Assembly: GCA_964016885.1 (NCBI GenBank)
Contig: OZ024754.1
Span: 21,700,001-21,764,000, forward strand
DNA from: Eledone cirrhosa
Taxonomy: Eukaryota
DNA length: 64,000 nt
Reading direction: 5' to 3'
The translations under genes and the position numbers were made by a program. Below the pieces are notes generated by a model that did no database searches, was not told the origin of the DNA, and worked only from the letters and a program-made list of their open reading frames with translations. Below are positions 4,177 through 45,480 of the stretch, piece by piece. Within the stretch, counting starts at the first letter, position 1. The number at the start of each line of letters is the position of its first letter.

Positions 4177-4178
<2 letters not shown>

Positions 4179-4434
4179 CCAGTCCTAAACAAATGAGGTC
4201 GTGTAGGTGTCACGACAAAAAAACACAGTCCACGCTGTAATGTGGCGGTGTAGGCAACACGGTAAACACCTACCAGTCTACACTGTAAACGTGGTTGGTG
4301 TTAGGAAGGGCATCCAGTCGTAGAAAACCCGCCAGACAGTCCTATGCAAGCAAGACAACCACTCTTGTCTAAAGTGGGAAAACTCCCGTCCAAACCCATG
4401 CAAGCGTGGAAGATGGACGTTAAATGATAATGAT
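4177..4434 (+). mobile_element. RTE family A, 3' UTR only (extreme 5' truncation)
   Basis: Matches the tails at 10540-10805 and 31725-31994 (GTGTTAGGAAGGGCATCCAG...GGACGTTAAA-TGA repeats). Confidence 0.88.
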
Positions 4435-4437
4435 ATG

Positions 4438-9021: not shown

Positions 9022-10805
9022 TATAGAGGCATTAAATTAATCGACCAGGTCATGAAGGTCACGGAAAAAGTAATAGCGCAACTAATCAGAGAGAGAATTG
9101 ACCTAGATGAAATGCAGTTCGGGTTTGTGTTGGGCAAAAGCACCACAGACGCTCTTTTCATAGTACGACAACTACAGGAGAAGTACCTAGCTAAAGGTAA
9201 ACCCCTCTACTTAGCTTTTGTCGACCTGGAGAAAGCCTTCGACAGAGTCCCCCGCTCCATTATCTGGTGGGCTCTTAGAAAATTAGGCGTTGACGAATGG
9301 CTTGTGAGGTCTATACAAGCCATGTATAAAGAAACAGTCAGCAAGGTTAGAATTAACAACGAATATAGTGAAGAGTTTAGCGTAAAAGTTGGCGTCCATG
9401 AGGGCTCTGTTCTCAGCCCCCTACTATTTATTATTGCCCTTCAGGCTATAACAGAGGAGTTCAAGACAGGCTTCCTATGGGAACTCCTATACGCAGACGA
9501 CCTGACACTCATAGCGGAATCAATGGCCGAGCTAGAGAAGAAATTCCAAACATGGAAGCACGGCCTAGAGTCAAAAGGACTTAAAATTAACCTGGCTAAG
9601 ACCAAAGTTCTAGTTTGTAGGAAAGAAAACAAGGCGGCGGTCCCTTCTGGGAAATGGTCGTGCTCGGTGTGTAGGAAAGGCGTAGGTAGAAACTCCATTT
9701 TATGTCCTAAATGCAAAGTATGGGTGCATAAAAGATGTAGTGGGATCACAGGTAAGCTAACTAAGAACATAGATTTTACATGTGGCCGGTGTTCTGGTGC
9801 AATAAGTAGCAGCAAGTGCCCACAAAATACTAGCTCTTTCAATTGCACAGAGGGTTCTATAGAAATAGTGGACAGCTTCCGTTACCTGGGCGATAAAATC
9901 AGCAGTGGGGGAGGGTGCTCTGAAAGTACTGTAGCTAGAGTCAGAACTGGTTGGAAAAAGTTCAGAGAGCTTATACCACTATTAGCTGCTAAAGGGTTCT
10001 CCCTAAAAGTGAAAGGCAGGTTGTACGATGCCTGCATACGAACAGCAATGTTGCATGGTAGTGAGACCTGGGCATTGTGTGCAGAGGATATACGCAGACT
10101 AGAGAGGAACGAAGCTTGCATGCTCCGCTGTATGTGTAACAGTAATATACGTGAACGGCAAAGCATAAACGAACTAAGGAAAAAATTAGAGATAAGAGGG
10201 ATCAGATGTTGTTTACTCGAGAGAAGGCTGCGTTGGTATGGACACGTGATGCGCATGAAAGTCGATAGCTGTATAACAAAGTACAGGGCAATAAAGATAG
10301 ACGGTAGCCACGGAATAGGCAGACCTAGAAAAACATGGGATGAGCTGATAAACTCCGACCTCACACACTTACACCTCTCCAAGACAATGTCACTGGACCG
10401 AGACCTTTGGCGGTACTCAGTAACAGAGAAGACCCGCCTTGCCAGTAGGTATCTCTAACAAAATACACCCCGTCCCGCTACCACCCCCACCCCATCCACA
10501 CCACCCCGTTCTATGTAAAGTTATGTTGGTGCCGCGCCATCCAGGCCGAAACAAATGAGATTGTGTAGGTGCCACGACAAAAAAACGCACAGTCCACGCT
10601 GTAATGTGGCCGTGTAGGCAACACGGTAAAAACCTCCCAGACCCACACTGTAAATGTGGTTGGTGTTAGGAAGGGCATCCAACTGTAGAAAACCTGCCAG
10701 ACAGTCCTATGCGAGCAAGACAATCACTCTTGCCTCAAGTGGGACTACCCCCGTCCAAACCCATGCAAGCGTGGAACACGGACGTTAAACGTTGATGATG
10801 ATGAT
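9022..10805 (+). mobile_element. RTE family A, 5'-truncated, RT to 3' tail; frame open to stop at 10458
   Basis: [36 protein letters not shown]4HC3 finger, [14 protein letters not shown]; (TGA)n tail. Confidence 0.95.
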
Positions 10806-10837
10806 ATATATAGATATATATATATATATATATATAT

Positions 10838-13306
10838 GCGCATGGCCACTTCCCGGAGGGTACCGCCGCCTTATTTTCTTTCTTACAAACTAGAACTTTA
10901 GTCTTAGCCATGTTAATTCTAAGGCCTTTTGATTCTAGGCCGTGCTTCCATGTTTGGAATTTCTTCTCTAGCTCGGCCATTGATTCAGCTATGAGCGTTA
11001 GGTCATCTGCGTATAGGAGTTCCCATGGGCAGCCGGTCTTGAACTCCTCTGTTATAGCCTGAAGGGCAATAATAAATAGTAGGGGGCTAAGAACAGAGCC
11101 CTGATGGACACCAACTTTTACGCTAAACTCCTCACTATATTCGTTGTTAATTCTAACCTTGCTCACTGTTTCTTTATACATGGCTTGTATAGCTCTCACA
11201 AGCCATTCGTCAATACCTAGTTTTCTAAGAGCCCACCAGATAATGGAACGGGGGACTTTGTCGAAGGCTTTCTCCAAGTCGACAAAGGCTAAGTATAGGG
11301 GTTTACTTTTAGCTAGGTACTTCTCCTGTAGTTGTCGTACAATGAAAAGAGCGTCTGTGGTACTTTTGCCTGACACAAACCCGAACTGCATTTCATCTAG
11401 ATCAATTAGTTCTCTGATTAGTTCCGCTATTACTTTTTCCGTGACCTTCATGACCTGGTCGATTAATTTAATCCCTCTATAGTTACTCCTATCTAGGGCG
11501 TCTCCTTTACCCTTGTAACAGTTAATGATGATGCTGCTACGCCAGTCCTTCGGAACAACCCCATTCTGTATGACTTGGTTTACTATCCGGGTGACCATGG
11601 TGTGTCCCACCATTCCAGAGGCCTTCAGCATCTCAGCGACTATTTCCGAAGGCCCAGCCGCTTTACCCGTCTTCATATCTTTGATCGCCTTACTTATTAT
11701 ACTACCTTCAACTAACACTGCTGGTCCCTCTATTGGATCGATGTGGGGGAGACTGTCTTTCTCCCATTTATTCTCCTCATTTAGAAGCCTTTCGTAGTGA
11801 CACTTCCAAGCTACCTTCTTATCAGCGTCGGTGATGGCAAGTATGCCATCATCGTTAAGTACACACTTCTCCCCGACAATATCACAGTTTTCCTTGACAC
11901 ATTGCCTGGCAATCCTGAACACCTCACGTTTTTGGTCCTCACGTTGTAGAACATGCTTGAACTTTCTTTCCTCTGCTTCCCTTCTTGCGAAGTACACTTG
12001 TCTCCTAGCTTCCCTCCTGGCCACTTGATAGTCTTCTCTACTTCCCCCATCCCGCCATACTTTCCAAGCCTGCTTTTTGGCCTTAATTGACTCCTCCACC
12101 TTACTGTTCCACCACCATGTTACTCTCCTCCTACCTACAGGCCTGCTCCAGCCACAGACTTCGTCTGCCGCCCTCAGCAGGTTTGCTCTCAGGAATTCCC
12201 ACTGTCCCTCTATATTGTCCGACTCTAAATGCTCTTCCTTACTGTGAAAGCGTCAAGTAATATGCTTTGAAATTTATTTCTGGCTGTGGGGTCCTTTAGC
12301 TTCCATATTTTTCTCCTGAGGATAGTCCTCTTCTGCTGTCGAGTACGTCTCGTCCTGACTATGAGGTCGCTAATTATCAGTTGGGAGGTGCATTCTTCAT
12401 GGGGGAGGGATTTAGTGTTTACAACAGTCACTCTGTCACGTCTTCTGGTAAGGATATAATCTACCTGGCTGGTATGTTCCCTTGATCTGTAGGTGATCAA
12501 GTGATTGTCTCGTTTTTTGAAGTTAGTGTTACAGATTGTTAGGTTATTTGCGTCACAAAATTCCAGGATTCTGGAGCCTTCCTCATTTCTAGTACCAAAC
12601 CCATAGCCTCCATGGATTTCATCATAGCCGTCACAATGTTGTCCAACGTGACCATTTAGGTCGCCAGCAATAATTATATAGTCACTGTCGGTTATTTGGG
12701 AGGTAGTGAGCATCAGTGTCTCATAGAAAGTGTCTTTTATAGCGCCAGGCAGTCCGGATTGGGGCGCATACGCAGATATTATCGTCACAGCAGTTCTATT
12801 TAGAACAAGTCTTATTTTAATTATTCTGTCGTTTACTCTATTTACGTCTATTATCTTATCCACCCATTTTTCTACTAACATGATTCCTACCCCACGCAGC
12901 CCATTGTCATTTCCCACCCAGAAAAGCTTATAGCATCGTTTTTTACCCACAATGAATCTAGCAGACCCGCCCCTCCACCTGGTCTCTTGGATGCAGCAGA
13001 CATCAACCTCCTTACGTTCAAGCATTTCTACAACCTCGTTTGAGCGGCCTTTTAAGGTCCCTACATTCATGGTACCAACTCTGAAGTTTTGGATTGCGTT
13101 TGGTGGGTGGGGTGCAGGGAGGGGTGTGGTTGATGGGGTTGGGGTTATGTTGGCCATCCGCGGCCGCAGCAAAGAGGGTGGGGCTTTACCCTTTCGTCCG
13201 GCAGCATGAGGTGAATTTGTCGTTATCTTTTGCATTGTCTTCGGGTGTCCAGATTCTTCTGACTCTCCAGAAATTCCCTAGCTCATCCATCATATTGAAA
13301 AAGCAA
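10838..13306 (-). mobile_element. RTE family A copy, 5' end to RT, frameshifted, 3' part missing
   Basis: ORFs 12225-13235 (APE: GTMNVGTL, CCIQETRW, AYAPQ, AGDLNGHVG, QVDYIL) and 10735-12099 (RT); sequence stops at KWPCA in a TA run. Confidence 0.93.
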
Positions 13307-13364
13307 TATATGTATATATATATGTATATATGTATATGTATATGTATATATATATATGTATATA

Positions 13365-16300
13365 TCATCATCATCATCATCATCATCGTTTAACGTCCGT
13401 GTTCCACGCTTGCATGGGTTTGGACGGGGGTTTCCCACTTGAGGCAAGAGTGATTGTCTTGCTCGCATAGGGCTGTCTGGCAGGTTTTCTACAGTTCGAT
13501 GCCCTTCCTAACACCAACCACATTTACAGTGTGGGTCTGGGAGGTTTTTACCGTGTTGCCTACACGGCCACATTACAGCGTGGACTGTGTGTTTTTTTGT
13601 CGTGACACCTACACGATCTCATTTGTTTCGGCCTGGATGGTGTGGCACCAACATAACTTTACATAGAAGGGGGGGCGGTGTGGATGGGGTGGGGGTGGTG
13701 GGACGGGGGTGTATTTTGTTAGAGATGCCTACTGACTGTAGTAGGTTTTACTTTGTATTTAGGTAAGGCGGGTCTTCTCTATTACTGAGTACCGCCAAAG
13801 GTCTCGGTCCAGTGACATTGTCTTGGTGAGGTGTAAGTGTGTGAGGTCGGAGTTTATCAGCTCGTCCCAGGTTTTTCTGGGTCTGCCTATTCCGTGGCTA
13901 CCGTCTATCTTTATTGCCCTGCACTTTGTTATACAGCTATCGTCCTTCATGCGCATCACGTGACCATACCAACGTAGCCTTCTCTCGAGTAAACAACATC
14001 TGATCCCTCTTATTTCTAATTTTTTCCTTAGTTCGTTTATGCTTTGTCGTTCACGTTCACGTTCATTTTTAGGGAGAACCCTTTAGCGGCTAATAGTGGT
14101 ATAAGCTCTCTGAACTTTTTCCACCCAGTTCTGACTCTAGCTACTGTACTTTCAGAGCACCCTCCCCCACTGCTGATTTTGTCACCCAGGTAACGGAAGT
14201 TGTCCACTATTTCTATAGAACCCTCTGCGCAGTTGAAAGAGCTAGTATTTTGTGGGCACTTGCTGCTACTTATTGCCCCAGAACACCGGCCACATGTAAA
14301 ATCTATGTTCTTAGTTAGCTTACCTGTGATCCCAATACATCTTTTATGCACCCAAACTTTGCATTTGGGACACAAAATGGAATTTCTACCTACGCCTTTC
14401 CTACAATCTGCGCATGGCCACTTCCCGGAGGGGACCGCTGCCTTATTTTCTTTCTTACAAACTAGAACTTTAGTCTTAGCCAGGTTAATTTTAAGGCCTT
14501 TTGATTCTAGACCGTGCTTCCATGTTTGGAATTTCTTCTCTAGCTCGGCCATTGATTCAGCTATGAGCGTTAGATCATCTGCGTATAGGAGTTCCCATGG
14601 GCAGCCGGTCTTGAACTCCTCTGTTATAGCCTGAAGAGCAATAATAAATAGTAGGGGCTAAGAACAGAGCCCTGATGGACACCAACTTTTACACTAAACT
14701 CTTCACTATATTCGTTGTTAATTCTAACCTTGCTGACTGTTTCTTTATACGTGGCTTGTATAGCTCTCACAAGCCATTCATCAACACCTAGTTTTCTAAG
14801 AGCCCACCAGATAATGGAACGGGGGACTCTGTCGAAGGCCTTCTCCAAGTCGACGAAAGTTAAGTATAGGGGTTTACTTTTAGCTAGGTACTTCTCCTGT
14901 AGTTGTCGTACAATGAAAAGAGCGTCTGTGGTACTTTTTCCTGACACAAACCCGAACTGCATTTCATCTAGATCAATTCGCTCTCTGATTAGTTGCGCTA
15001 TTACTTTTTCCGTGACCTTCATGACCTGGTCGATTAATTTAATGCCTCTAGAGTTACTCCTATCTAGGGCATCTCCTTTACCCTTATAACAGTTAACGAT
15101 GATGCTGCTACGCCAGTCCTTCGGAACAACCCCATTCTGTATGACTTGGTTGACTATCCGGGTGATCATGCTGTGTCCCACCGTACCAGATGCCTTCAGC
15201 ATCTCGGCAACTATTTCCGAAGGCCCACCCGCCTTGTTCGTCTTCATATCTTCGATTGCCTCGTTAAGTACACACTTTTCCCCGACAATATCACTGTTTT
15301 CCTTGACACATTGCCTAGCAATCCTGAACACCTCACGTTTTTGGTGCTCACGTTGTAGAACATGCTTGAACTTTCTTTCCTCTGCTTCCCTTCTTGCGAA
15401 GTACACTTGTCTCCTAGCTTCCCTCCTGGCCACTTGATAGTCTTCTCTGCTTCCCCCATCCTGCCATACTTTCCAAGCCTGCTTTTTGGCCTTAATTGAC
15501 CCTCCACCTTACTGTTCCACCACGATGTTACTCTCCTACTGCCTACAGGCCTGCTCCAACCACAGACTTCGTCTGCCGCCGTCAGCAGGTTTGCTTTCAG
15601 GAATTCCCACTGTTCCTCTACCTTGTACGACTCTAATTGCTCTTCCTTACTGTCGAAAGCATCAAGTAATATGCTTTGGAATTTATTTTTGGCTGTGGGG
15701 TCCTTTAGCTTCCATATTTTTCTCCTGAGGATAGTCCTCTTTTGTTGTCTAGTACGTTTCGTCCTGACTATTAGGTCGCTAATTATCAGTCTATGTTGGG
15801 AGGTGCATTCTTCATGGGGGAGGGATTTAGTGTTTACAACAGACACTCTGTCACGTCTTCTGGTAAGGATATAATCTACCTGGCTGGTATGTTCCCCTGA
15901 TCTGTAGGAGATCAAGTGATTGTCTCGTTTTTTGAAGTTAGTGTTACAAATAGTTAGGTTATTTGCATCACAGAATTCCAGGATTCTGGAGCCTTCCTCG
16001 TTTCTAGTACCAAACCCATAGCCTCCGCCGTTTCCGTCATAGTCGTCACAATGTTGACCAACGTGGCCATTTAGGTCGCCAGCAATAATTATATAGTCAC
16101 TGTCGGTTATTTGGGAGGTAGTGAGCATCAGTGTCTCATAGAATCTGTCTTTTATAGCGCCAGGCAGTCCGGATTGGGGCGCGTATGCAGATATTACTGT
16201 CACAGTAGTTCTATTTAGAACAAGTCTTATTTTAATTATTCTGTCATTTATTCTATTTACATCTATTATCTTATCCACCCATTTTTCTGCTAACATGATT

Positions 16301-16909: not shown

Positions 16910-18077
<1,168 letters not shown>

Positions 18078-18078
<1 letters not shown>

Positions 18079-21000
18079 ATCATCATCATCATCATCACCG
18101 TTTTACGTCCGTTCTTCCACGCTAGCATGGGTTAGACGGGTTGTCCTGTTGTGGGCAGTGTCTGGTCGGCTGACCATGCCTTGCTCATACAGGAACTGAT
18201 CTGGCTTGATTTCTACAGCTGGATGCCCTTCCTAACACCAACCTCATTTACAGTGAGTGCTGGGTGCTTTTTCGTGGCGCCTACACGTCCACTTTACAGT
18301 GTGGGCTGGGTGCTTTTTTGCCGTGGCACCTCCACGACCACCTTGCGGTGGGGGGGGGGGGGGGGCATATTGTTTATATGCTTCAGCATGTACCCATGGG
18401 AGGTCGGGTACCCTGTATTACTGCGTGACGCCAGAAGTCACGGTCGTGTGTCATTGACTTTGAGAGGTGTAGTTGGGTAAGGTCGGCTTTTATCACCTCA
18501 TCCCAAGTCATCTTGGGTCTCCCCACTCCGCGGTTTCCATCAACTTCTAGTGCTCTGCACCTTTTTATGCAGCTGTCATCCTTCATACGCATCACATGTC
18601 CATACCAGCGTAACCGCCTCTCCTGCACGCAGCATTTGATTCCTCTTATGCTCAGTCTCTCTCTCAATTCATTTATGCTTTGTCGTTCACGTATATTACT
18701 GTTACACATCCATCGGAGCATGCAGGCTTCGTTTCTCTCTAATCTACGTAAGTCTTCCACCTTCAGCGCCCAGGTCTCACTACCATGCAACATCGCTGTT
18801 CGGATACACGCATCATACAGTCTGCCTTTCATTCTGAGGGAGAAGCCTTTTGCAGCTAGCAGTGGTAGTAGTTCCCTAAACTTCTTCCATCCCGTTCTTA
18901 CCCTAGTTATTGTACTTTCTGAGCACCCACCTCCGTTGCTAATTCGGTCACCTAGGTAGCAGAAGCTGTCTACTGTTTCTACAGGGCCCTCCCAGAGATT
19001 GGTGGTACTTGTTTCCTGTGGCTGTTTGCTTGCTGTTTCAGCACAGCTGCTGCATGTGAATCCTACATTCTTAATTAAGCTTCCTGAGATCCCGCTACAT
19101 CTCTTGTGTACCCATTGTTTGCATTTGGGGCAAAGAATGGAGTTCCTACCTACACCTTTCCTACATACTGAGCAAGGCCATTTCCCTGAGGGGATCTGGG
19201 TTCTGTTTTCTCGTCTACTTATAAGGACCTTAGTCTTTGTCATGTTGACTTTGAGGCCCTTTCTCTCTAGTCCCTGCTTCCAGGTTTGGAATTTATTCTC
19301 TAGTTCTACCATAGATTCAGCTATGAGTGCGAGGTCATCAGCATACAGGAGTTCCCATGGGCATCCGGTCTTAAACTCCTCCGTTATTGCCTGCAGGACT
19401 ATGATGAACAGGAGAGGGCTAAGAACAGAGCCCTGGTGGACCCCAACCTGTACGCTAAATTCCTCGCTATACTCATTGCCAATCCTAACTTTGCTGACTG
19501 CTCCCCTATACATGGCTTGTACCGCTTTCACAAGCCATTCATCTACTCCTAGTTTTCTAAGAGCCCACCAGATTACTGCACGTGGAACTCTGTCAAAGGC
19601 TTTCTCAAGGTCGACAAATGCCAAGTAGAGTGGCTTACTTTTAGCTAGGTACTTTTCCTGTAATTGCCTCACAAGGAAGAGCGCATCAGTGGTGCCTTTC
19701 CCTGGAACAAACCCAAATTGCATCTCGTCTATATTCACCCGGTCCCTAATCAGCTGTGCTATAACTCTTTCTGTTACTTTCATGACCTGGTCCATCAACT
19801 TTATACCTCTATAGTTTCCTCTATCTAGTGCATCGCCTTTACCTTTGTAGCAGTTGACAATGATGCTACTGCACCAATCTTTTGGTATGGCCCCCTCTAG
19901 TATTACCTGGTTAACGATACGTGTGGTTATAGTGTGACCTACAGACCCAGATGCCTTCAGCATCTCGGCAGCTATACCCGATGGACCGGTTGCCTTCCCT
20001 ATCTTCATATCTCTGATTGCCTTACTTACTACGCTGCCGCTGACTTGTACTGCTGGTCCCTCTATAGGGTCTACGTGGGGTAGGGTCTCTTCTTCCCATG
20101 CATTCTCCTCATTTAGTAATCTATCATAATGACTCTTCCATGCATCTTTCTTCTCAGCACTTGTGAGGGCAAGCTCACCTTTATCATTCCGGATACACTT
20201 CTCTCCAATGACATCACAACTATCTCTGACACACTGCCTCGCAATCTTGAATACCTCCTGTTTCTGGTCCTCACGTTGTAAAACATGCTTGAATTTTCTA
20301 TCCTCTGCTTCCCTCCTAGCTAAGTATACTTGTCGTCTAGCTTCCCTCTTGGTCTCTATGTAATGTACCCTGCTCCCCCCGTTCTTCCATTCTTTCCATG
20401 CCTGTCTCTTGGCCTTGACTGCTTCATCTACCTTATTGTTCCACCACCAAGTCACTCTCCTCCTGCTTGAGGTCTTACTCCAGCCACAAACCTCATCCGT
20501 CGCCTCTAGTAAGTTATTTTTTAGGAACTCCCAGTTCTCTTCTACGTTAAATGTCTCTATCTGTTCTTCTTTACTGTCGTAGGCGTTGAGTAAAATATCT
20601 TTAAATCTGTTACTGGTTGAGGGGACTTTCAGCTTCCAGATCTTTCTTCTCCAGGTTGGCCTCTGTTTCAGGGCTCGTCTAGTTCTGACCGTGAGGTCGC
20701 TGACAACTAAGCTATGTTGGGATGTACATTCCTCACTAGGGAAGGCTTTTGTGTTTACGACCGTCCATCTGTCACGTCCTCTGATGAGGATAAAATCTAA
20801 CTGACTAGAGTGCTCCCCTGATCTATAGGTGATCAGGTGGTTGTCGGGTTTTTTAAAGTTTGTGTTACATATCGACATGTCATTGGCGTCGCAGAATTCT
20901 AGAAGTCTGAATCCTTCCTCATTCCTTGTGCCAACTCCATGGCCTCCATGTACTCTATTGAAGCCGTCGCAGTGTTTACCTACGTGTCCGTTAAAATCTC

Positions 21001-21811
21001 CTGCAATGATTAGGAAGTCCTTGTCGTCTGTTAGAGCAGTAGTGTGTATTAGGGACTCGTAAAACCTATCCTTAAGTTCGTCTGGCAGCCCCGATTGGGG
21101 TGCGTAAGCTGATATTATTGTGGTAATTGTCTTATTCAGGACTAGTCTGAGTTTAATGATTCTTGCATTTACCCTGTACACTGAGATTACTTTATCTACC
21201 CACTTGTCAGCTAATAGTATACCTACACCACCCATCCCATCGTCATTTCCCACCCAGAAAAATTTGTAGCACTGGCTTTTTCCTACAAGGACTCTAGCAG
21301 ACCCTCCTCTCCATCTAGTCTCTTGCACACAACATACATCAACTTCCTTTCGCTCTAGCATTTCTACGATTTCTCCTGCTCTTCCTTTCATTGAGCCTAC
21401 ATTGATGGTACCAACTCGGAGTTTTGGGCATTTGTCGACACTCGTAGGGGAGGGTCTCTGGGTTGGCGCTTCACGTGGGTGCTTGGTAGCTCGCAGATTC
21501 ATATTTCATCTATTGATTCAGAGTTGCTCGTGTATTCCCAGCTCATCCATCCCTAACGGTGAAAATTGAGGGCTAGAAGGACAGTGGTGGTGGGGTAATG
21601 GCAGGGTGTGTTGGGATGCGCCAGAGGAGGAGAGAGTTAGTTAGGCAGGTAGTAGAAGCAGCAGCAGCAGTGGAAATGGCATGCTAGGTTTGATTGGTCG
21701 AATAGGCTATGGTGGTGTGTGGGGGTGGGGGGGAGGGAAATTGTGAGGTAGGAACTGAGGGTCGCATGGTAAATATCCAAGTTAATACTACATCAGTAAA
21801 ATTAACAATAA
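18078..21811 (-). mobile_element. RTE family B, full-length LINE (5' boundary may extend to ~23214)
   Basis: Intact ORF, structured 3' UTR, (TGA)n tail at 18078-18097. Confidence 0.93.
18383..21502 (-). CDS. RTE-clade LINE polyprotein: APE endonuclease + reverse transcriptase with inserted PHD-type finger, 1039 aa, uninterrupted
   Basis: APE motifs GTINVG, CCVQETRW, AYAPQ, GDFNGHVG, QLDFIL, SQH. RT motifs NYRGIKL, QFGF, DLEKAFD, GVHQGSVLSP, YADD, FCYLG. C4HC3 at 19043-19174. Confidence 0.95.
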   Translation of the reverse strand: MNLRATKHPREAPTQRPSPTSVDKCPKLRVGTINVGSMKGRAGEIVEMLERKEVDVCCVQETRWRGGSARVLVGKSQCYKFFWVGNDDGMGGVGILLADKWVDKVISVYRVNARIIKLRLVLNKTITTIISAYAPQSGLPDELKDRFYESLIHTTALTDDKDFLIIAGDFNGHVGKHCDGFNRVHGGHGVGTRNEEGFRLLEFCDANDMSICNTNFKKPDNHLITYRSGEHSSQLDFILIRGRDRWTVVNTKAFPSEECTSQHSLVVSDLTVRTRRALKQRPTWRRKIWKLKVPSTSNRFKDILLNAYDSKEEQIETFNVEENWEFLKNNLLEATDEVCGWSKTSSRRRVTWWWNNKVDEAVKAKRQAWKEWKNGGSRVHYIETKREARRQVYLARREAEDRKFKHVLQREDQKQEVFKIARQCVRDSCDVIGEKCIRNDKGELALTSAEKKDAWKSHYDRLLNEENAWEEETLPHVDPIEGPAVQVSGSVVSKAIRDMKIGKATGPSGIAAEMLKASGSVGHTITTRIVNQVILEGAIPKDWCSSIIVNCYKGKGDALDRGNYRGIKLMDQVMKVTERVIAQLIRDRVNIDEMQFGFVPGKGTTDALFLVRQLQEKYLAKSKPLYLAFVDLEKAFDRVPRAVIWWALRKLGVDEWLVKAVQAMYRGAVSKVRIGNEYSEEFSVQVGVHQGSVLSPLLFIIVLQAITEEFKTGCPWELLYADDLALIAESMVELENKFQTWKQGLERKGLKVNMTKTKVLISRRENRTQIPSGKWPCSVCRKGVGRNSILCPKCKQWVHKRCSGISGSLIKNVGFTCSSCAETASKQPQETSTTNLWEGPVETVDSFCYLGDRISNGGGCSESTITRVRTGWKKFRELLPLLAAKGFSLRMKGRLYDACIRTAMLHGSETWALKVEDLRRLERNEACMLRWMCNSNIRERQSINELRERLSIRGIKCCVQERRLRWYGHVMRMKDDSCIKRCRALEVDGNRGVGRPKMTWDEVIKADLTQLHLSKSMTHDRDFWRHAVIQGTRPPMGTC

Positions 21812-23036
21812 TAACGTCATGAAAAAAGCTACTAAGAGAAACCCTCGAAAATTTATCGCTAATACAGCAGGGAAAATTTAACGCTAATACAGCAGGGAAC
21901 ATCATATTAACGACATGAAAAAGCTACTAAGAGAAACCCTCGAAAATTTATCGCTAATACAGCAGGGGAAATTTAACGCTAATACAGCAGGGAACATCAT
22001 ATTAACGACATGAAAAAGCTACTAAGAGAAACCCTCGAAAATTTATCGCTAATACAGCAGGGAAAATTTAACGCTAATACAGCAGGGAACATCATATTAA
22101 CGACATGAAAAAGCTACTAAGAGAAACCCTCGAAAGTTTATCGCTAATACAGCAGGGGAAATTTAACGCTAATACAGCAGGGAACATCATATTAACGACA
22201 TGAAAAAGCTACTAAGAGAAACCCTCGAAAATTTATCGCTAATACAGCAGGGAAAATTTAACGCTAATACAGCAGGGAACATCATATTAACGACATGAAA
22301 AAGCTACTAAGAGAAACCCTCGAAAATTTATCGCTAATACAGCAGGGAACATCATATTAACGACATGAAAAAGCTACTAAGAGAAACCCTCGAAAATTTA
22401 TCGCTAATACAGCAGGGAAAATTTAACGCTAATACAGCAGGGAACATCATATTAACGACATGAAAAAGCTACTAAGAGAAACCCTCGAAAGTTTATCGCT
22501 AATACAGCAGGGGAAATTTAACGCTAATACAGCAGGGAACATCATATTAACGACATGAAAAAGCTACTAAGAGAAACCCTCGAAAATTTATCGCTAATAC
22601 AGCAGGGAAAATTTAACGCTAATACAGCAGGGAACATCATATTAACGACATGAAAAAGCTACTAAGAGAAACCCTCGAAAATTTATCGCTAATACAGCAG
22701 GGGAAATTTAACGCTAATACAGCAGGGAACATCATATTAACGACATGAAAAAGCTACTAAGAGAAACCCTCGAAAATTTATCGCTAATACAGCAGGGAAA
22801 ATTTAACGCTAATACAGCAGGGAACATCATATTAACGACATGAAAAAGCTACTAAGAGAAACCCTCGAAAGTTTATCGCTAATACAGCAGGGAAAATTTA
22901 ACGCTAATACAGCAGGGAACATCATAATATTAACGACATGAAAAAGCTACTAAGAGAAACCCTCGAAAATTTATCGCTAATACAGCAGGGAAAATTTAAC
23001 GCTAATACAGCAGGGAACATCATAATATTAACGACA
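21812..23036. repeat. Tandem array, 13 units of ~95 bp with an internal 25-bp subrepeat
   Basis: Unit CATGAAAAAGCTACTAAGAGAAACCCTCGA-AAATTTATCGCTAATACAGCAGGGA-AAATTTAACGCTAATACAGCAGGGA-ACATCATATTAACGA; one 70-bp unit at 22294. Confidence 0.97.
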
Positions 23037-23955: not shown

Positions 23956-26714
23956 AACTTTGAATAACTTTGAAATGTTTTGGCCAGTATTGGCCCAGGC
24001 CATGTCTAACTTAATAGCACCACCTGGCGAAGCCTTTCAATTCAGGATTTGGGCACCATGGCCCATTCGAGAAGAGAATTACTTTTTGCGGAGACATATC
24101 CGGGTGTGGGTGGTTTGTCCGGGATTACTTGGAGGAATTTGTCCAAAGACTTCTTGAATTTTATGTGGTCAGTTTCTGTTTTGACGTGTCCTGGTGTGAT
24201 GTTGAAGAGAGCAGGGCCGATTGAGGTGAAATAATTGTGCCGTATTGTTGTTATGAGTTGCGATTTAGATTTTTGAATGGGACGGATAGCACGGGGCCCA
24301 AGCCTTGGGTGTATCTTGAAGGCGATGCCAACATCATTTGGGCAGTGATGATGGAACATTTTCCACATCATGCAGATAATATAACGCTCACGGCGACGTT
24401 GGAGTGAGTAAAGTTTCAGGTTTTCTAATCGACCCCAGTAGTCAAGGTCTGACATGCCATCTATCTTTTTCATGATTGCCCTTTGAGGAGCTTCAAGTTT
24501 CATGATACTTTGTTTCGTGTGGGGAGACCACAGTGGACAACAGTATTCAAGGTGTGGTTGGGCGAAAGTAGAGAAGAGAAGGATAATGGTGCGGGAATCT
24601 CTCGACTGGAAGGTTCTGAGGATCCAGGAACACATTCTGCGGTCCATGTCAACTTTGCTGCTTATATGCGTGGTCCAGCTTATGTTGCTGTCCACGGTTA
24701 CTCCCAAGTCTCTGATGTTGTTAGATGCCACGAGAGTTTCCCCGGAGGGAAGGGAGTACGGGAGTTTCAGAGCATCCTCTTTTCCAAAGTGGATCAGTTC
24801 GAATTTGTCTTCGTTCAGTAACATGTTGTTCTTTTCTGCCCATTGGGTAACAGCCAGTAGGTCTGACTGAAGGCTTATCCGGTCATCCACGCCATTGATG
24901 ACCTTTTGGAGCTTGGAATCATCAGCGAAAATTTTAATGTTGCTGTGTTTGATGATGTCAGTGATGTCATTAATATAGATGATGAAGAGAAGTGGGCCCA
25001 ACACAGTGCCTTGTGGGACCCCACTACTGACTTTGGCTGGGCTTGATTTGACTCCCTCAACTACAACATGTTGGGTTCTGTTTGACAGGAAGCTCTTGAT
25101 CCACTGCAGCAGCTTTCCAGTGACACCAATATTGGACAGCTTTCTCAGTAGAATGTTATGATCAACCCTGTCAAAGGCCTTGCTGAAATCAAGGTAGATA
25201 ACATCAGTGTTGGAACCCTCTCCCAAGGCTCTCAAAATGTCATCAAAGTGATGCAGTAGCTGCGTCAGGCAATCCCTTCCATTACGGAATCCATGCTGGT
25301 TGGAGTTCAGCATATTGTTACTCTCAAGGAAGTGGGTCATTCGCGATCTCACCACTCGCTCAAATACCTTAATGATATGAGAGGTGAGTGAGATTGGACG
25401 GTAATTCACGGCAAGGGATTTGTTTCCCTTTTTGAAAACTGGGACAACAGACTGGGATAGAAGGTTTTCTGGCACATATCCAGCATCCAGTGAGTTCCGC
25501 CACAGATTGGCAAGAGGAGATGCAAGTTGGTGTTGACACGCCTTCAAGACACAAGCAGGGAACCTATCGGGACCTACTGCTGAATTATGCTTGATTTCCT
25601 TTATTGCCGCCAAGACATCAGGGGCGCCAAACGTTATGTCCGATAAGGTGTAATGGGGAGTAACATCGCCGATACAGCCCAGATCGGCCATATCAGGATT
25701 GCTGAAAACAGAGCAGTATTGTTTCTGCAGTATCTCACCCATGGTTTTAGCATTGTCTTGAAGAGTGCCATTTTCATCAATTAGAGGGCCAACAGTAGAG
25801 CCAGTGATTTTTTGTTTTTTTGCAAATGAAAAGAACACTTTGGGATTGAGTTTGATCTTCTCAATGGCCCAGGCCTCTTCAGCTCTTCTCTGATTGTTGA
25901 TGAGGGACATTATGTTGTTTTGGAGGTTATGTTTTTTAATCTCTAGTGATGAAATGGCAGTCAAGTTGATGTGTTGCTGCTGACAGTATTTCAGCTTGTT
26001 GATTTTTTTGTTCGTTCTCTTAATTTTTCTGATGAGCGTTTTTCTATTTCTAGGGATTCTGCTCTTAGATTTGTTTATAGTTCTTAATGGGGTGTGTTTA
26101 GCACATATGTTTGTAACAGTGTCCACAAATGTCTGCCAGGACTTTTTGATGTTAGTGGGTGTATGAGTGTGCGTGAAGGACCAGTCGACATGTGCAAGAT
26201 CATGACTGATCGCTTCCCAGTTTGCATTGTGGAAATCCATAGCGTCAAACGGATGGACAGGAGAGATGACATTGGGTTTGTATATTGGACGGTGGAATCT
26301 CAGATCACAGAGAACCATGTCATGATCAGAGAGTAGAGTTTTCTCCACTGCAATATTGTGGATATTGTCAGTGTGATTGCTGAAAATTAAGTCTAGGACG
26401 TTTTTGTGGCACCTCGTTGGTTCGAGCACCAGTTGGGATAGGAAGAAATCATCCATGAAGTCAAGAAGCGATTCCACAGCTTCCCTGTCAGAGGTTGAGG
26501 CAGAAGAACCTGGTGGCAGGCTGTTTGTGGACCAGTCAACTCCGGGGAGGTTGAAGTCCCCCATCATTAAGATGTTGTCAGGGTGACACTCTTGGATGAA
26601 ACACTTTATGCTGTTGAGGCATTCCTTGAAGCATGGTACAGGCGTTTGGGGTGGCCTATAGAGCCCAACTACTAATAGGTTGTTGGTTTGACTGAATACA
26701 GTGACTGCTTCACT
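23956..26714 (-). mobile_element. CR1-group LINE, 5'-truncated inside the endonuclease; remaining ORF2 open to stop at 24042
   Basis: GLYRPP, MGDFNLP, LDLIFSN, SDH; [47 protein letters not shown]; tail (TTCAAAGTTA)2. Confidence 0.92.
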
Positions 26715-26899
26715 GTGTATATGTATATATGTGTATATGTATATATGTATATGTATATATGTATATATATATATATATGTGTATATGTGTATATGTGTAT
26801 ATGTATATATGTATATATATATGTGTATATGTATATATATATACATATATGTGTGTATATGTATATATGTATATATATATATATATATATTTTTTTTTT

Positions 26900-27115
26900 G
26901 GATCGATCGACTTTCGTCAAATCGGACCGAAGAAAATGTTTCCCGTTGGTCTTTCCAGTTGCTAGTACTATCTATTGGTCGCAACTCCAGGTAGAAGGAG
27001 CAACGTGAAATAAAGTGTCTTGCTCAAGGACATAATGCATCGCCCGGTCCAGGAATCGAACTCACAACCTCAAGATTGTGAATCCAATTCTATAACCACT
27101 CAGCCACACGCCTTC
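26900..27115 (-). mobile_element. tRNA-CORE SINE, different tail subfamily
   Basis: Minus strand GAAGGCGTGTGGCTGAGTGG...GAGTTCGATTCC...CCTTGAGCAAGACACTTTATTTCAC. Confidence 0.8.
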
Positions 27116-28932: not shown

Positions 28933-29665
28933 ATATGGGTAATAACTTGGTAGAAATATCCAAGGTATAGAATAACTCAAGTCCGTAGAGCAAATTTTAA
29001 TATAATTATTAAAGCCAGTTACTACTAAATTTTATTGTCCATCATGCATTGTTTTATCCTTCTTAAATCAAATCTACATTATATATTTATATATGTACGT
29101 GTGTATAATATGTATAAAGTCAAGGAAACATGAAACGAATGAACAAGAGGATGCAATAACATAGTCCATTAGTTTCATGCTTGGAGAAAGAATGTATGAG
29201 TTGCATAGTCAACGTATCGGGTATTTGCCCCTCAATGGGAATGATGCAAAAAATAAAATTAAATAAACGGTAGTTGAAATAATGTTAGGAAGATATTACA
29301 AAAATAATAAAGAGGAGAGAGGGGGAGTGGTTCGGTGTCCTGGTGGAGGTGGGTGTTTATGTGTAGGTGAGGTGCACATTATGGTGCATTTGCGTGTGTG
29401 TGGGTGTTAAGTGTTTTGATGGTGGATGTGTGTGTTCATAAGTATGTGAGAGCATCTGTATGTTGTTGGTTGTGTATCTATATATGTCTCTCTCCTCTGT
29501 GTGTGTGTGTATATATATATATATGTGAATGCATTTTGTAATATGCAGTTTGAAGGTTACAAAAATTATCAATATACTACTTGTTTTGTTTTCATTTATC
29601 TCTTTGATAAAAAAAACCGAATGGCATTTGATTTGTGAATTTATTTATTTATTTATTTATTTCAG

Positions 29666-30289
29666 GTCCAGGGCAAAGATCCTTCAGTGGATATCACTCA
29701 AGACGTTGTAGAAGAATCTGAAGATGAGCGCTTTGATGACATGCCCGATGCAGCTCCACCAATTGAGTTGCCTCCGTGTGATTTAAGCAAACTCGAAGAG
29801 ATCTCAGAACTGTTTAACAACGTGCTTCCGTCGCCAATACGGCGAGAGAAACTCTCAGTAGCAATAGAAACTGAAAATTACATAAAAAAACTTATAGATT
29901 TATTTCATATGTGTGAGGACCTTGACAACATTGATGGTTTACATCACCTTTATGACATTTTTAAGAGCATCTTTTTGCTTAACAAAAATGCTCTATTTGA
30001 GATCATGTTTGCTGATGATATTATATTTGATGTCGTCGGCATCCTAGAATATGACTCTTCTCTATCTCAGCCAGCTAGACATAGAGAGTACTTACAAAAC
30101 ACATCGCGGTTCAAAGAAGTTATACCCATCATAAATACAGAATTGCGGAACAAAATCCACCAAACTTACAGAGTACAGTATATCCAGGATGTGATATTAC
30201 CAACACCTTCAGTTTTTGAAGAAAACATCTTGTCAACATTAAGTTCCTTCATATTTTTCAATAAAGTAGAAATTGTTACAATGATACAG
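29666..30289 (+). CDS. PPP4R3: PPP4R3/SMEK coding exon (first in window; EVH1-coding exons lie upstream)
   Basis: ttcag|[26 protein letters not shown]...[24 protein letters not shown]...[14 protein letters not shown]|gtaaat; 624 nt, phase 0-0. Confidence 0.95.
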
Positions 30290-30446
30290 GTAAATATTTC
30301 TTTTTACAACTTAACTTGTTTTTCAATTAGCTATTATATATTCTCCCTTATACTAGAATCTTCATTAATTAATGTTAATATTATGAGTGGCATATTGCTG
30401 AGAGAGAAGACAATGAATTGCTGAAAATCACGGGAGTTGAACCATT

Positions 30447-31994
30447 AACTAGGTGTTGATGAATGGCTTGTGAGAGCTATACAAGCCATGTATAAAGAAA
30501 CAGTCAGTAAGGTTAGAATTAACAACGAATATAGTGAAGAGTTTAGCGTAAAAGTTGGTGTTCATCAGGGCTCCGTCCTTAGCCCCCTCCTATTTATTAT
30601 TGCCCTTCAGGCTATAACAGAGGAGTTCAAGACCGGCCACCCATGGGAACTCTTATACGCAGATGATCTAACGCTCATAGCTGAATCAATGGCCGAACTG
30701 GAGAAGAAATTCCAAACATGGAAGCATGGCTTAGAATCAAAAGGCCTTAAAATTAACCTGTCTAAGACTAAAGTTCTAGTCTGTAGGAAGGAAAATAGGG
30801 CACCAGTCCCATCTGGGAAGTGGCCATGCTCAGTGTGTAGGAAAGGAGTAGGCAGAAACTCCGTTTTATGTCCCAAATGCAAAGTATGGGCGCATAAAAG
30901 ATGTAGTTGGATCACAGGTAAGCTAACTAAGAATATAGATTTTATATGTGGCCAGTGCTCTGGTGCAATAAGTAGCAGTAAGTGCCCACAAAATACTAGC
31001 TCTTTCAATTGCGCAGAGGGTTCTATAGAGATAGTGGACACCTTCCGTTACCTGGGTGACAAAATCAGCAGTGGTGGAGGGTGCTCTGAAAGTACAGAAG
31101 TTAGCGTCAAAACGGGATGGAAAAGTTCAGAGAGCTTATACCACTATTGGCCGCTAAAGGGTTCTCTTTAAAAATGAAAGGCAGGCTGTATGATGCCTGC
31201 ATACGAACAGCAATGTTACATGGCAGTGAGACCTGGGCATTATGTGCAGAGGATATACGCAGACTGGAGAGGAACGAAGCTTGCATGCTCCGCTGGATGT
31301 GTAATAGTAATATACGTGAACGGCAAAGCATAAATGAACTAAGGGAGAAATTAGGAATAAGAGGGATCAGATGTTGTTTACTCGAGAGAAGACTACGTTG
31401 GTACGGTCACGTGATGCGCATGAATGACAACAGCTGTATAAAAAAGTGCAGGGCGATAAAAATAGACGGTAGCCACGGAGTAGGCAGACCCAGAAAAACC
31501 TCGGACGACTTGATAAATTCCAACCTCACACACTTACACCTCTCCAAGACAATGTCACTGGACCGAGATCTTTGGCGCTACACAGTAATACAGAAGACCC
31601 GCCTTGCCTAAGTACAAAGCGAAACCTACAGTCAGTAGGCTCCGCTAACAAAAATACACCCGTCCCACTACCCCCACTCCATCCACACCACCCCTTCCAA
31701 TGTAAAGTTATGTTGCTACCACAACATCCAGTCCGAAACAAATGAGGTCGTGTAGGTGTCACGACAAAAAAACACACAGTACACGCTGTAATGTGGCCGT
31801 GTAGGTAACACGGTAAAAACCTCCCAGTCCACACTGTAAACGGGGTTGGTGTTAGGAAGGGCATCCAGCTGTAGAAAACCCGCCAGACAGTCCTATACGA
31901 GCAAGACAGCCAATCTTGCCTCAAGTGGGAAAATTCCCGTCCAAACCCATGCTAGCGTGGAAGATGGACGTTAAACGATGATGATGATGATGAT
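30447..31994 (+). mobile_element. RTE family A, 5'-truncated, intronic
   Basis: ORFs 30470-31171 and 31117-31611, 3' UTR and (TGA)n tail. Confidence 0.93.
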
Positions 31995-32301: not shown

Positions 32302-32570
32302 TATTATTATTTTTCTAATGATGTTATTTTACAGAATTAAAGAGTAAAGATCTTGGTAGAGAAGATACTTCAATTGTGTCATAGTAACTTCCCTAATGCT
32401 TGTGCCATGATAAAACTCATCCAGCACACTCTGTAAAGTGGTTGGCAAATAGAATATTAAATATTTTAAAAGGTATTGAAATGTAACCTTAAAAATATTT
32501 AATTGGTCTTTTATATTGCTGGATGAATTACCATAAAGACCATGGAGAATGATGGTAATTTAAGAATTAA

Positions 32571-32788
32571 CCCTTTAGCATTTAAACCGGCCATATCCAG
32601 CCAGATTTCTCTCACCTCTTGCAGTTCAAACTGGCCATAACCGGCTGCTTATATTTATGTTAAGGTATTGTTCTCAAAATAAATATCAAAATCATGTAGA
32701 TTTGATATTATGTGAGATGATTATTTGAGATAAAGCCTTTACCATGAAAATATAATAGTATATCTAGAGTAATGTAAATGTTAAAGGG
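32571..32788. mobile_element. piggyBac-like MITE (copies also at 45035-45197, ~60177-60334 and 62700-62887)
   Basis: TTAA|CCCTTTAGCATTTA...TAAATGTTAAAGGG|TTA; shared internal sequence between copies. Confidence 0.78.
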
Positions 32789-33622
32789 TTATAGAAGCTC
32801 TCCTTATAAACAGGCATAAGCCGAACATCAATAATTGATCAGAGCTATATAGAGCAGACTAGCAGTTATAAGTTTGTGGGAACAGAACACTTTTTTTTTC
32901 TGCATTGATCATTTGAAAAGGTCTTTATCTTGAAGTATTATTAAAGTATATTGAGTAAAAAGATTTTGTTCTGTTTTGTCATCCTTTCATCCCAGTTCCA
33001 TCTTTATATTTCTATCAACATTGTTCAGGCTTTCCCAACATTTTATTATTTATTATGTATATTATGTATACAAATGTAAGAAAATAGAAATCTTTTACTC
33101 CAAACATAATCCATGGCCTTAAAATAAATTGAAAAAGACTAATAACTATTATTTTTCTGTTTATTAATAATTTACCATTATAGCATTTAAGTATGAATTG
33201 TTATGGGTATGTAACCTATTGGTTAAAGTGTTGGACTGAAAATGCTAAATTTGTGAGTTTGATTCCTGAAGCAGGGAGTGCATTGTGTTCTTGCAAAATA
33301 TTTCATTTCTTGTTGTTTTTAAGGATAGGACTAGGTCTCCATATCATTAAAACATCCGAGAAACCTCCTCTGAGATGCAATCTCGTTGAAGGATAGGTGT
33401 TCTTGAGCAAGATATTTAATTTTATGTTGTTTTTCAGGATAGGACTAGGTCCCCAATCATTAAAACACCTGAGAAACTGCAAATCTCATTGAAGGATAGC
33501 TAAATCTGCATCAGCGTGAGCTGTAAATGTTATTTGATTTCCATTTTCTTTGTTTATTATTGTTGGTATCTCTGTTGAAATATTTTGATACAATTGTATA
33601 TCTTCTTTCTTTGATGTTTCAG

Positions 33623-33772: not shown

Positions 33773-34492
33773 GTGAATATTTTAATGTCAAAAGGAAAAG
33801 AAATAAAAGATCGTCGACTAGCATTGAGTTAATTTTGTAGAGCCAGTTAAAATTTTCTTTAAATTCTTGGTATTTTTTACGTAATATATTTAGATGCTTA
33901 AGTGACAAGATGTTAAACTTTTCCATTTAATTTGATAGCTATATATACACTGATAAAGATTTCAGTCTTATATTAGCAAGTAGTTCTGGCTATGAAACCA
34001 TTTGATTTAGAAATGGATACAATTCTTGATTCTTTTCTGGTTGTAAAACCATAACAATGTAAAATGATAGTAAAAATAAACCAGTCTCGTGAACCCTTTC
34101 ATTACTGCTATATAGAAAAAATAGTTTCAAATTCAGTCCCACAATATAGCATCATGGGTGAGTGCCTACTGCTGTAGCTTCAGACTAACCAATGTTTTGC
34201 AATTGGATTTGGTAGACAGAAATTGTAAGGAAGTCCCTTAGTGTATGTGTGTATACCAGTAGACAAAAGTCAGCAGGGTGTATATCATACTTAAAATAAA
34301 GTATGGGTTGGTGTCAAGAAAGAACATTGGGTCATAGAAAGCCAGCTGAAAAAAAGCTCTTCTAAAACGTGCGGACATGGAAAAAAACTGATGGAAAAAC
34401 AATGATGTTGAGAAAATAATGTCCAAAACCACCCATTTTAAACATATAATTTTATATAATAATCATTTAAGCTTACTAATACTATCTTAATA

Positions 34493-34607
34493 ATTGTTTC
34501 TACGTTAGGCACAAGGCCAGCAAATACCCAGTGTATTACTGGTACTTTATTTTATCGACCCCGTAAGGATGAAAGGCAAAGTTAACCTCGGCGGGATTTG
34601 AACTCAG
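34493..34607 (-). mobile_element. 5'-truncated SINE with Meta-like central domain
   Basis: Minus strand GAGTTCAAATCCCGCCGAGGTTAACTTTGCCTTTCATCCTTACGGGGTCGATAAAATAAAGTACCAG; same family at 45350-45480 and ~58010-58170. Confidence 0.78.
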
Positions 34608-34613
34608 AATACT

Positions 34614-34945
34614 GGAGGCACATGGCTTAGTGGTTAGAGCATTGGCCTTGCAATCAAATGGTTGTGAGTTCAATTCTCAGACAGGGTGATGTGTTGTTTC
34701 CTTGAGCAAGACACTTTATTTCACATTGCTCCAGTTTACTCAGCTGTAGAAATGAGATGATAGGGACTGGGGTCCCTATCATTCCACTGCAAAGTGGTCG
34801 TGGAGGTGCCACGGCAAAAAAGCACCCAGCACTCACTGTAAATGAGGTTGGTGTTAGGAAGGGCATCCAGCTGTAGAAATCAAGCCAGAATCAGTTCCCG
34901 TCCCACCCTTGCAAGCAGGGAAAAGCGGACGTAAAAATGAAATGA
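34614..34945 (+). mobile_element. tRNA-CORE SINE with RTE-B tail, full length
   Basis: Near-identical to 547-885; flanked by AATACT direct repeat. Confidence 0.9.
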
Positions 34946-35752: not shown

Positions 35753-36606
35753 TATTAGTATGGGGATATCACACTAAACAGTTGTTTTGCTAATGAGATT
35801 GTGTGGTGCAAGTGTTTTCTGTAATGATTGCCATAATAACAGCAGAATTATGTGAATTTAGATTTTTTAAAATAAAACTATTTTATTGGTTTATATAGTT
35901 GGCTGTTGTAGAAATGTTTAATAATGTCTAATCTATTATAAAAGGCTGCAAAGTTGGACAGAATGCTTTATGGTCCTTGTTCTGGTGTTCTGAATTCAAT
36001 TCACATGGAGGTCACCTTTGTCTTTCATCCTTTTGAGGTCTATAAAAGAAGTGCTAGTCTAGTATTGGGGTTCAGCTGTTTGTCTATGTCTGAAAGCAAT
36101 TGGCTGTGTTCAGACATGAAGTGAAATGTATTCAGCCAGTTTTAAATGACCACAATGGTGTCCTCACATCCCCTCTCCATCAGGAGTTAAAGGCCTGTGC
36201 TGTTGAATCTACTCTATTAGATTGTTAATGATAAAATTATACATACTAAAACAAATGTATATTTTGTTTTCTATGAGAGAAGTATAGGTTTAACTCTTTC
36301 ATTACCATATTTCTAATGAAAAATACTGCCTATAATTAATAATGAAAATAATCAATAATTTGGATGGATTTAATGATATGGCTAACTTTCTCATTGTTAA
36401 GCTGGTGTTTGGAACAAAATTTAAAGGTGCTTAGAATTACGAGAGGTTTTTTTGATAAATCTAAACACCTTAAAAAATATAGTCTCAGAATTAGGAGCAG
36501 TTTTAGGCAATTGGTTATCAAAAGTGTTAATGATTCAAATTTCCAGAAAATGTGTTTACTTTATAATGGATCAAGTACTTGTTATAGAATGTGATTTCAA
36601 TTTTAG

Positions 36607-44918: not shown

Positions 44919-45349
44919 GTAAGTCTATATTAGATATTTTATTTATTAATTCTCTTATTGTCCTGTACCATATGAGACCACAGGATTTCATTAGTTAACA
45001 CTTTACATCCTATATCACATTAGATTACATTAAACCCTTAGCATTTAAACTGGCCATATCTGGCTGCTCATGCTTACGTTAAGGTATTGTTCTCAAAATA
45101 AATAAAATCAAAATCTCATAGATTCAATATTATGTGTGGTAAAGCCTTAACCAGGAAAATAAAATAGTATATATAGAGTAATGTAAATACTAAAGGGTTA
45201 ATCATGTTATGGTGTTAGTTAAAAATCTATGCATGTCTATATTATTTTACTGCAAGTGGTTTTCAATATAGTTAAAGTAATTTTTTTTTTAAATTAGGGT
45301 GTTTGGTTGTACAGAAAAATGAAAATAATGGAAGTCTTTTTTTATAATA

Positions 45350-45480
45350 ATTGTTTCTACTTTTGGCACAAGGCCAGCAAATACCCAGTACATTACTGGT
45401 ACTTTATTTTATCGACCCCATAAGGATGAAAGGTGAAGTTATCCTCGACGGGATTTGAACTCAGACCATAAAGGGACGTA
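45350..45480 (-). mobile_element. 5'-truncated Meta-like SINE with ~17-bp target-site duplication
   Basis: AAGTCTTTTTT(T)ATAATA at 45332-45349 and 45481-45497; homologous to 34493-34607. Confidence 0.82.

Follow-up and report, generated by a model that had tools for sequence, protein, structure and literature searches.

The 3' tail of an RTE-like LINE of Eledone cirrhosa is a real, conserved, and probably pseudoknotted RNA region, although the part that can be regarded as proven is smaller than was claimed for it. The window analyzed here, a 64,000-bp stretch of contig OZ024754.1 (positions 21,700,001 to 21,764,000 of assembly GCA_964016885.1), contains two families of this LINE, A and B, and a SINE that shares their tail. 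The base pairings, the duplication of a unit within the tail, its conservation between the two families, and the retention of one unit in the SINE are all present in the window, and the fold of the tail and its binding by a protein are predictions built on them. The initial annotation of this DNA had presented the tail as a covarying ladder of stacked pseudoknots, serving reverse transcriptase (RT) recognition or RNA protection, of which it knew no description.

A single-ORF LINE and its surroundings

The window is AT-rich animal DNA (33.7% GC) with long TA microsatellites. The family B LINE carries a single intact ORF at 18383 to 21505 (-), whose 1,040-amino-acid frame matches Exo_endo_phos and then RVT_1, plus a PHD finger, giving an AP endonuclease followed by an RT in one ORF. 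The window copies end in (GAT)n short tandem repeats, not poly(A), as RTE-type elements do. Family B is therefore provisionally placed in the RTE clade, a label taken from architecture rather than from a tree. No named clade reference was among the matches in protein look-ups with family B; the highest-identity named relative is an Octopus bimaculoides protein (60%), and the RT is 50 to 60% identical to that of metagenome element L021, which itself has a twister-like 5' end. Family A and family B proteins are 76% identical over 471 amino acids. The PHD finger lies directly behind the RT domain (18660 to 19180 [-]; residues 778 to 821 of the ORF), is common among relatives of the family B protein, and is a candidate RNA- or chromatin-binding part.

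Immediately upstream of the family B LINE is an array of ~13 units of 95 bases (21808 to 23036). The window also contains a second, different LINE with endonuclease and RT at 24042 to 27023 (-) and an exon of a PP4R3 gene at 29639 to 30424 (+). TA microsatellites enclose the younger LINE and SINE copies or receive their ends (540 to 886, 4177 to 4437, 10537 to 10830, 13300 to 13640, and 18060 to 18100), a hint of preferred targets, although target-site duplications were identified for none of these copies. Two short AT-rich repeat families are also scattered through the window, one at 32567 to 32791, 45044 to 45210, 60169 to 60335, and 62688 to 62891, the other at 36288 to 36526, 44476 to 44717, 56013 to 56265, 60439 to 60669, and 61222 to 61441, and at least one of them has apparent terminal inverted repeats (MITE-like).

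Anatomy of the tail

In RNA order, the family B tail (minus strand throughout) runs from the stop codon through a C-run, a cap hairpin, PK1a, PK2a, PK1b, PK2b, a conserved hairpin, a variable middle, and a terminal hairpin to (GAT)n. The cap hairpin (18338 to 18351), taken from the centroid fold, has a GCAA loop and is likely a collapsed PK2 reduced to its stem 2, judging from sequence; the cap hairpin of the SINE aligns to PK2a with a 2-base gap. PK1a (18309 to 18338) is a predicted H-type pseudoknot with a 6-bp stem 1 (GTCGTG/CACGGC), a 2-base loop, and a 5-bp stem 2 in which loop GGTGC pairs with GCACC after an A6 linker. The CORE-like PK2a (18289 to 18308) is predicted to have a 3-bp stem 1, a 4-bp stem 2, and a TAAA linker, and may be a plain hairpin rather than a pseudoknot. 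PK1b (18263 to 18288), the second PK1 copy, has one stem 2 mismatch in the family B copy, and PK2b (18243 to 18262), with CTCA pairing with TGAG, is the part that best matches the CORE segment of the SINE itself. The whole ladder, PK1a to PK2b, spans 18243 to 18338, with the second module at 18243 to 18288, and lies ~145 to 240 bases upstream of the 3' repeats. Downstream of it are the conserved hairpin (AGGAAGGGCATCC motif; 18218 to 18243), which in related elements occurs in the 5' untranslated region (UTR) just behind a twister-like ribozyme, the terminal two-stem hairpin (18106 to 18138), whose shape recurs at the 3' ends of related elements, and the (GAT)n repeats (18078 to 18099), with a TA microsatellite next. 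The duplicated ~50-nucleotide module in a LINE 3' UTR, the flanking cap and terminal hairpins, and the (GAT)n end without poly(A) were all located as the initial annotation had described them.

This design is common to five family-A-type tails and two SINE copies, and a profile search also picks up older remnants. The family A tails lie at 13376 to 13640 (-), with two modules; at 10537 to 10802 (+), with a shifted-register double change in PK1; at 31724 to 31988 (+); at 4177 to 4437 (+), in a copy 5'-truncated ~20 bases before the ladder; and, diverged, at 50999 to 51274 (+), where module 2 can pair GGAA with TTCC. A remnant of an older family (32402 to 32445 [+]) has T-A in PK2 where family A module 2 has A-T. 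The conserved hairpin also stands without the ladder, behind different upstream sequence, at 37292 to 37328 (+) and 53736 to 53769 (+) and in metagenome loci L017, L018, and L034; the elements of the window itself lack its motif in their 5' regions.

The family B tail is also present in 20 of 24 listed sequencing runs (15 studies), with at least half of the sampled words in 14; none of the listed runs that carry it is an RNA run. Raw reads of run X22 gave no alignment to the tail. Contigs of two other organisms (K and G), compared up to 18288 as per-position values without linkage between positions, show changes on both sides of a PK2 pair (18244 and 18256). In runs X14 and X15, joints within 18092 to 18353 reach back 37 to 48 bases, pointing to additional modules, or variant ones, in the tails of other organisms.

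Crossing pairs in module 1 exceed chance

A generic H-type search (stems of 3 to 7 bp, loop 1 of 1 to 3, loop 2 of 0 to 1, and loop 3 of 3 to 8), with rules set after the motif had been seen, found two flush pseudoknots in module 1 of three LINE copies, totaling 18, 17, and 16 bp and matched by 0 of 400 dinucleotide shuffles each. The SINE module likewise yielded two flush pseudoknots of 18 bp (matched by 1 of 400 shuffles), and antisense strands did not exceed 8 bp. In module 1 and in that of the SINE, the predicted stems cross, loops 1 and 2 are short, and loop 3 is A-rich, and the predicted pseudoknots of module 1 have textbook loop sizes. The claim that each module can fold as two pseudoknots is supported for these modules but not for module 2, of which two copies were tested: its PK1 was not recovered in either, and its PK2, the one knot recovered in both, was equaled by 188 and 128 of 400 shuffles. 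PK1 of B module 2 contains a C-A mismatch in the window copy, but most of the contig depth in the two other organisms reads the pairing base at this site (18279; 23.5 of 38.8 and 30.5 of 62.8). The AGG:CCT stem proposed for family A module 2 proved to be out of register, with 2 pairs in register.

The register itself varies in family A. The GTGC:GCAC stem reported at ~10560 to 10590 does pair, two bases off the family B register and using the first base of the PK2 stem, but in the family B register one pair is broken. This copy and the one at 13.5 kb differ at 3 of 109 positions, and two of the differences are compensatory solely in the register shifted by two bases, which borrows PK2's first base. 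The copy at 4.2 kb, with a 2-base deletion, retains only the shifted PK1 register; therefore, family A may trade one pair between PK1 and PK2.

Covariation was examined in 14 related module rows (13 distinct), with 19 pairs and 238 cells. Pairing is found in 87.8% of the cells, compared to 23 to 47% with slid partners. Both-sided changes affect 4 of the 19 pairs, the same as under shuffling (263 of 500 shuffles reach that number), and cells with such a change number 11 versus 5.0 ± 2.0 in shuffles (7 of 500), an excess that does not amount to a P value because the rows are related. The changes comprise T-A versus C-G in PK1 stem 1 between the family A modules, C-G in family B and the SINE versus T-A in family A in PK1 stem 2, and A-T versus T-A in PK2 stem 2; the diverged copy at 51 kb adds one further both-sided change, and at a different PK2 pair the remnant at 32422 has T-A. 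Pairing holds in 73% of cells for PK1 stem 2 and in all cells for PK2 stem 1 (CAG/CTG), which has zero both-sided changes within the window. Both-sided changes thus exist in the ladder, but as about four family-level events rather than many.

Conservation of the tail between families is clearer. Comparing family B with the family A copy at 31.7 kb, 109 of 192 third codon positions are identical (57%), versus 40 of 49 positions in module 1 and 37 of 48 in module 2 (77 to 82% for the ladder), 44 of 57 in the variable middle, and 31 of 34 in the terminal hairpin. The best-conserved part, with 34 of 37 positions identical, is the stretch 18205 to 18241 with the conserved hairpin, which the initial annotation had missed.

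Folding energies were estimated roughly, as stacking sums with assumed pseudoknot loop penalties of 7 and ~10.8 kcal/mol. Family B PK1 reaches -11 to -15 kcal/mol versus -11.3 as a hairpin alone, and the PK2s range from 0 to -8 kcal/mol versus -3.9 for the nested hairpin in the B fragment. By these estimates PK1 is plausible, and PK2 would be marginal without tertiary contacts. Nested whole-tail folds are mildly better than shuffles (z scores of -1.66 and -2.00) and form hairpins from PK1 stem 1 and PK2 stem 2. We consider it fairly probable that module 1 adopts its pseudoknots at all, and rather doubtful that the full four-knot ladder forms in both families; for family A, a complete set of four knots finds no support.

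One module and a predicted CORE-like knot in the SINE

A tRNA-headed CORE-type SINE at 34613 to 34945 (+) contains a predicted CORE pseudoknot (34732 to 34756), one ladder module (34797 to 34846), where two had been claimed, the conserved hairpin, and the terminal hairpin. In a second copy (540 to 886 [-]), the tRNA-derived head matches the Rfam tRNA model with 31.2 bits at 819 to 876; ARAGORN called no tRNA gene. The 53 bases that separate the conserved and terminal hairpins are absent from the SINE, and one module and the two hairpins are retained, a pattern better suited to mobilization than to translation. Separating the CORE segment from the LINE-derived tail, a perfect 11-bp hairpin (34755 to 34780 [+]; also in the copy at 540 to 886 [-]) has a similar counterpart in an older SINE family (33227 to 33499, 49415 to 49564, and 52157 to 52734), so the SINE looks chimeric. 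An identical 13-base stretch is found in its CORE segment (34744 to 34753 [+]) and in the 3' side of the conserved hairpin (18205 to 18222 [-]), possibly a template-switch point or a sign of common origin. Another SINE family, which we take to resemble the Nin/Deu type, occurs at 34488 to 34612 (-), 45345 to 45465 (-), and 42724 to 42796 (-), and one of its copies abuts the CORE SINE.

The PK2 pattern at 34732 to 34756 lies within the SINE body. This CORE segment and PK2b share 20 identities in 26 columns (7 of 2,000 shuffles); the corresponding counts are 644 for the A ladder, 160 for the whole B tail, and 89 for the whole A tail, making the likeness significant for the B ladder only, in a test picked after the match had been seen. 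In sequence, PK2 is similar to the SINE CORE domain's 3' half. CORE consensuses from paper supplements were compared by eye, without a statistic: alligator MIR1_AMi has CAG/CTG with TCCCCA:TGGGGA, marsupial MAR1 has CTCA:TGAG, scallop BivaCORE-SINE2 has TACTCA:TGAGTA, and oyster Cgi_CORE_1 has CAC/GTG with ACCCA:TGGGT. By eye, both stems are kept in all four, from vertebrates to molluscs, through compensatory changes at two positions of stem 2 and one of stem 1. The segment is missing or altered in six CORE-type families (MIR_Xt, WALLSI2, WALLSI4, SINE2-2_ACar, SepiaSINE, and BivaCORE-SINE1), WALLSI4 having TAG/CTA at the stem 1 positions in the published alignment. Collection scans for CORE-type motifs returned 0, 3 (apparent chance matches), and 0 hits, the tail motif had 0 hits in viral contigs, and the PK2-type pattern in 120 metagenome loci came down to 1 of 25 candidates, an unconvincing one.

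The SINE body closely follows, by eye, BivaCORE-SINE2 as printed in the supplement of PMC4824008. Bipartite SINEs described by Kojima consist of a CORE-like piece, an RTE 5'-UTR piece, and an RTE 3' end (PMC5786205 and PMC7245038). The LINE tail has a CORE-like knot, then an RTE 5' piece, then an RTE 3' piece, and thus follows the bipartite-SINE order. The LINE may have captured a SINE-like body or a bipartite element, or the transfer may have gone the other way.

Related elements have the terminal hairpin without the ladder

In a metagenome scan for the conserved-hairpin motif, 120 of ~1,800 loci were sampled. Of 133 motif occurrences in this sample, 63 have a twister-like pattern immediately before them. 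Rfam twister-P1 matched 5 of 7 tested loci, with a best score of 50.5 bits, under the gathering score of 67.2, and 0 of 20 metagenome loci had an Rfam match at the gathering score. Matches to the family B protein were found in 13 of the 120 loci. In three loci (L013, L021, and L023), an ORF begins downstream of the motif, which is therefore 5' UTR there. More broadly, metagenome contigs L004 to L120 (e.g., L113:221-297 [+], L013, L021, and L023) contain abundant short elements and RTE-like 5' ends starting with a twister-P1-like ribozyme; the conserved hairpin comes directly after it, and some of these elements have a terminal hairpin ~170 bases later. The tail region of the window (18060 to 18420) had no match to twister (RF03160) at E values up to 10. 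The idea that PK2 is a twister relic was rejected, its likeness to the L113 twister being no better than that of shuffles (1,747 and 1,338 of 2,000).

At the other end of these elements, the ORF ends viewed (L012, L015, L029, and L039; 4 of 4) are followed by a short 3' UTR with solely a terminal hairpin and repeats. The terminal hairpin of relatives differs in sequence and has the same two-stem shape in 9 of 14 examples folded from 19 pattern matches shown, with a search pattern that itself favors this shape. We infer that the terminal hairpin is likely the general, primary RT handle and that the ladder would be a lineage-specific addition. Since the terminal stem-loop stands alone in 4 of 4 relatives' 3' UTRs, the ladder appears to be accessory rather than a universal handle.

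What the ladder might do

Our preferred reading, held tentatively and at somewhat less than even odds of being correct, is that the ladder serves as an accessory grip for the element's own RT, upstream of the terminal stem-loop that positions priming. The terminal hairpin would position the RT, and the upstream knots would add binding surface or selectivity, like the R2 pseudoknot (PMC11601368). The tail would have been assembled from a SINE-like or bipartite element as a CORE-like knot, then a 5'-UTR-derived hairpin, then an RTE 3' hairpin. A selected structured tail is supported because conservation exceeds that of third codon positions, the SINE retains a module, and the crossing stems show a few compensatory changes. 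This much of the proposed RT-recognition module stands, but a general RT handle it is not: the grip model is weakened because relatives carry the terminal hairpin without the ladder, and the SINE may have kept its module passively, which also counts against it.

Alternatively, the tail might be a string of ordinary hairpins (PK1 stem 1, PK2 stem 2, conserved, and terminal) whose crossing pairs are not formed together. Nested folding already produces PK1 stem 1 and PK2 stem 2, the cap hairpin looks like a PK2 cut down to stem 2, and PK2 stem 1 lacks a both-sided change in the window. However, PK1 stem 2 adds 4 to 5 pairs right after the A-run and differs between families in both of its strands, every cell pairs at CAG/CTG, and the oyster CORE consensus has CAC/GTG at that stem, leaving this reading unlikely. 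The pseudoknots could instead be real but act in RNA stability or translation, as a nuclease barrier or a tobamovirus-like substitute for poly(A). Tobacco mosaic virus (TMV) likewise has small pseudoknots in series in a poly(A)-free 3' UTR (PMC4683447), and the copy truncated ~20 bases before the ladder is what a 5'-to-3' barrier could give. That single truncation point is an anecdote, however, the SINE is presumably untranslated yet retains a module, and the distance of the ladder from the 3' repeats would leave the terminal hairpin unshielded from 3' decay; protection of a tail without poly(A), as the initial annotation had it, fits poorly because of this distance, and we regard such a function as quite unlikely. 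A further possibility is a passenger ladder: a piece inherited from a SINE, doubled by slippage, and by now in decay. PK1 of family A module 2 is degraded, contigs elsewhere have further duplications (the joints described above), and related elements manage without the ladder, all as expected of a passenger; against this, between-family identity is well above third-position identity, and changes between families mostly preserve pairing, which makes it decidedly improbable.

Comparison with known systems

How RTE-type elements choose their RNA is little worked out, and the origin of SINE body domains such as CORE has been called enigmatic (PMC5786205). A 20- to 25-base pseudoknot with named pairs makes both RTE RNA choice and the cross-phyla conservation of SINE domains testable. 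If true, a LINE whose 3' UTR has the layout of a SINE body would mean that tail borrowing ran opposite to its usual direction; should the tail form hairpins alone, what remains is a stringent tail that is well conserved. An Rfam search of the tail gave no match. Literature searches, with many older SINE papers and all figures outside their scope, found no description of the ladder or of a CORE pseudoknot, and the word "pseudoknot" is absent from the available parts of PMC4758252 and PMC9115989. The tail itself is in this sense undescribed, as had been supposed, but R2 offers an earlier example of a functional pseudoknot in a 3' UTR (PMC11601368).

In TMV, three consecutive pseudoknots in a 3' UTR without poly(A) are important for replication and translation (PMC4683447). 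The tobamovirus domain is viral and is followed by a tRNA-like structure, whereas the window tail has no tRNA match and belongs to a retrotransposon; the likeness is in shape only. Perere-3 is an RTE element led by a twister ribozyme at its 5' end (PMC8501958). In the relatives, the conserved hairpin directly follows twister-like sequence, which fits such twister-led elements, but the window tail is without a twister match. Stringent LINE/SINE tails are known from zebrafish LINEs (PMC4176376) and from bivalve CR1/L2 tails (PMC4824008), where, as here, a LINE and a SINE share a 3' tail with a conserved stem-loop, short repeats, and compensatory changes. Those tails are described there as single hairpins, and the window tail adds a duplicated, predicted pseudoknot unit and a 5'-UTR-type hairpin. 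MAR1, WALLSI2, and the Ceph-SINEs (PMC5786205) have the same order of CORE-like, RTE 5'-UTR, and RTE 3' pieces; in the window, this order forms the 3' UTR of autonomous LINEs, and no RNA fold is proposed for CORE in the available part of that paper.

By analogy, the closest known case is the pseudoknot-hinge-stem of avian R2, a 3' UTR structure that binds protein and in which compensatory mutations rescue activity (PMC11601368). As in the A-clade R2 elements of birds and turtles, a predicted pseudoknot lies upstream of a 3' stem, and sequence diverges with the fold apparently kept; the one in R2 is protein bound. R2 has one pseudoknot, a 6-base hinge, a restriction-like endonuclease, and a fixed target (PMC11601368), whereas the tail in the window belongs to an element with an AP endonuclease and has two to four predicted tandem knots, whose distance to the terminal stem is ~100 bases greater.
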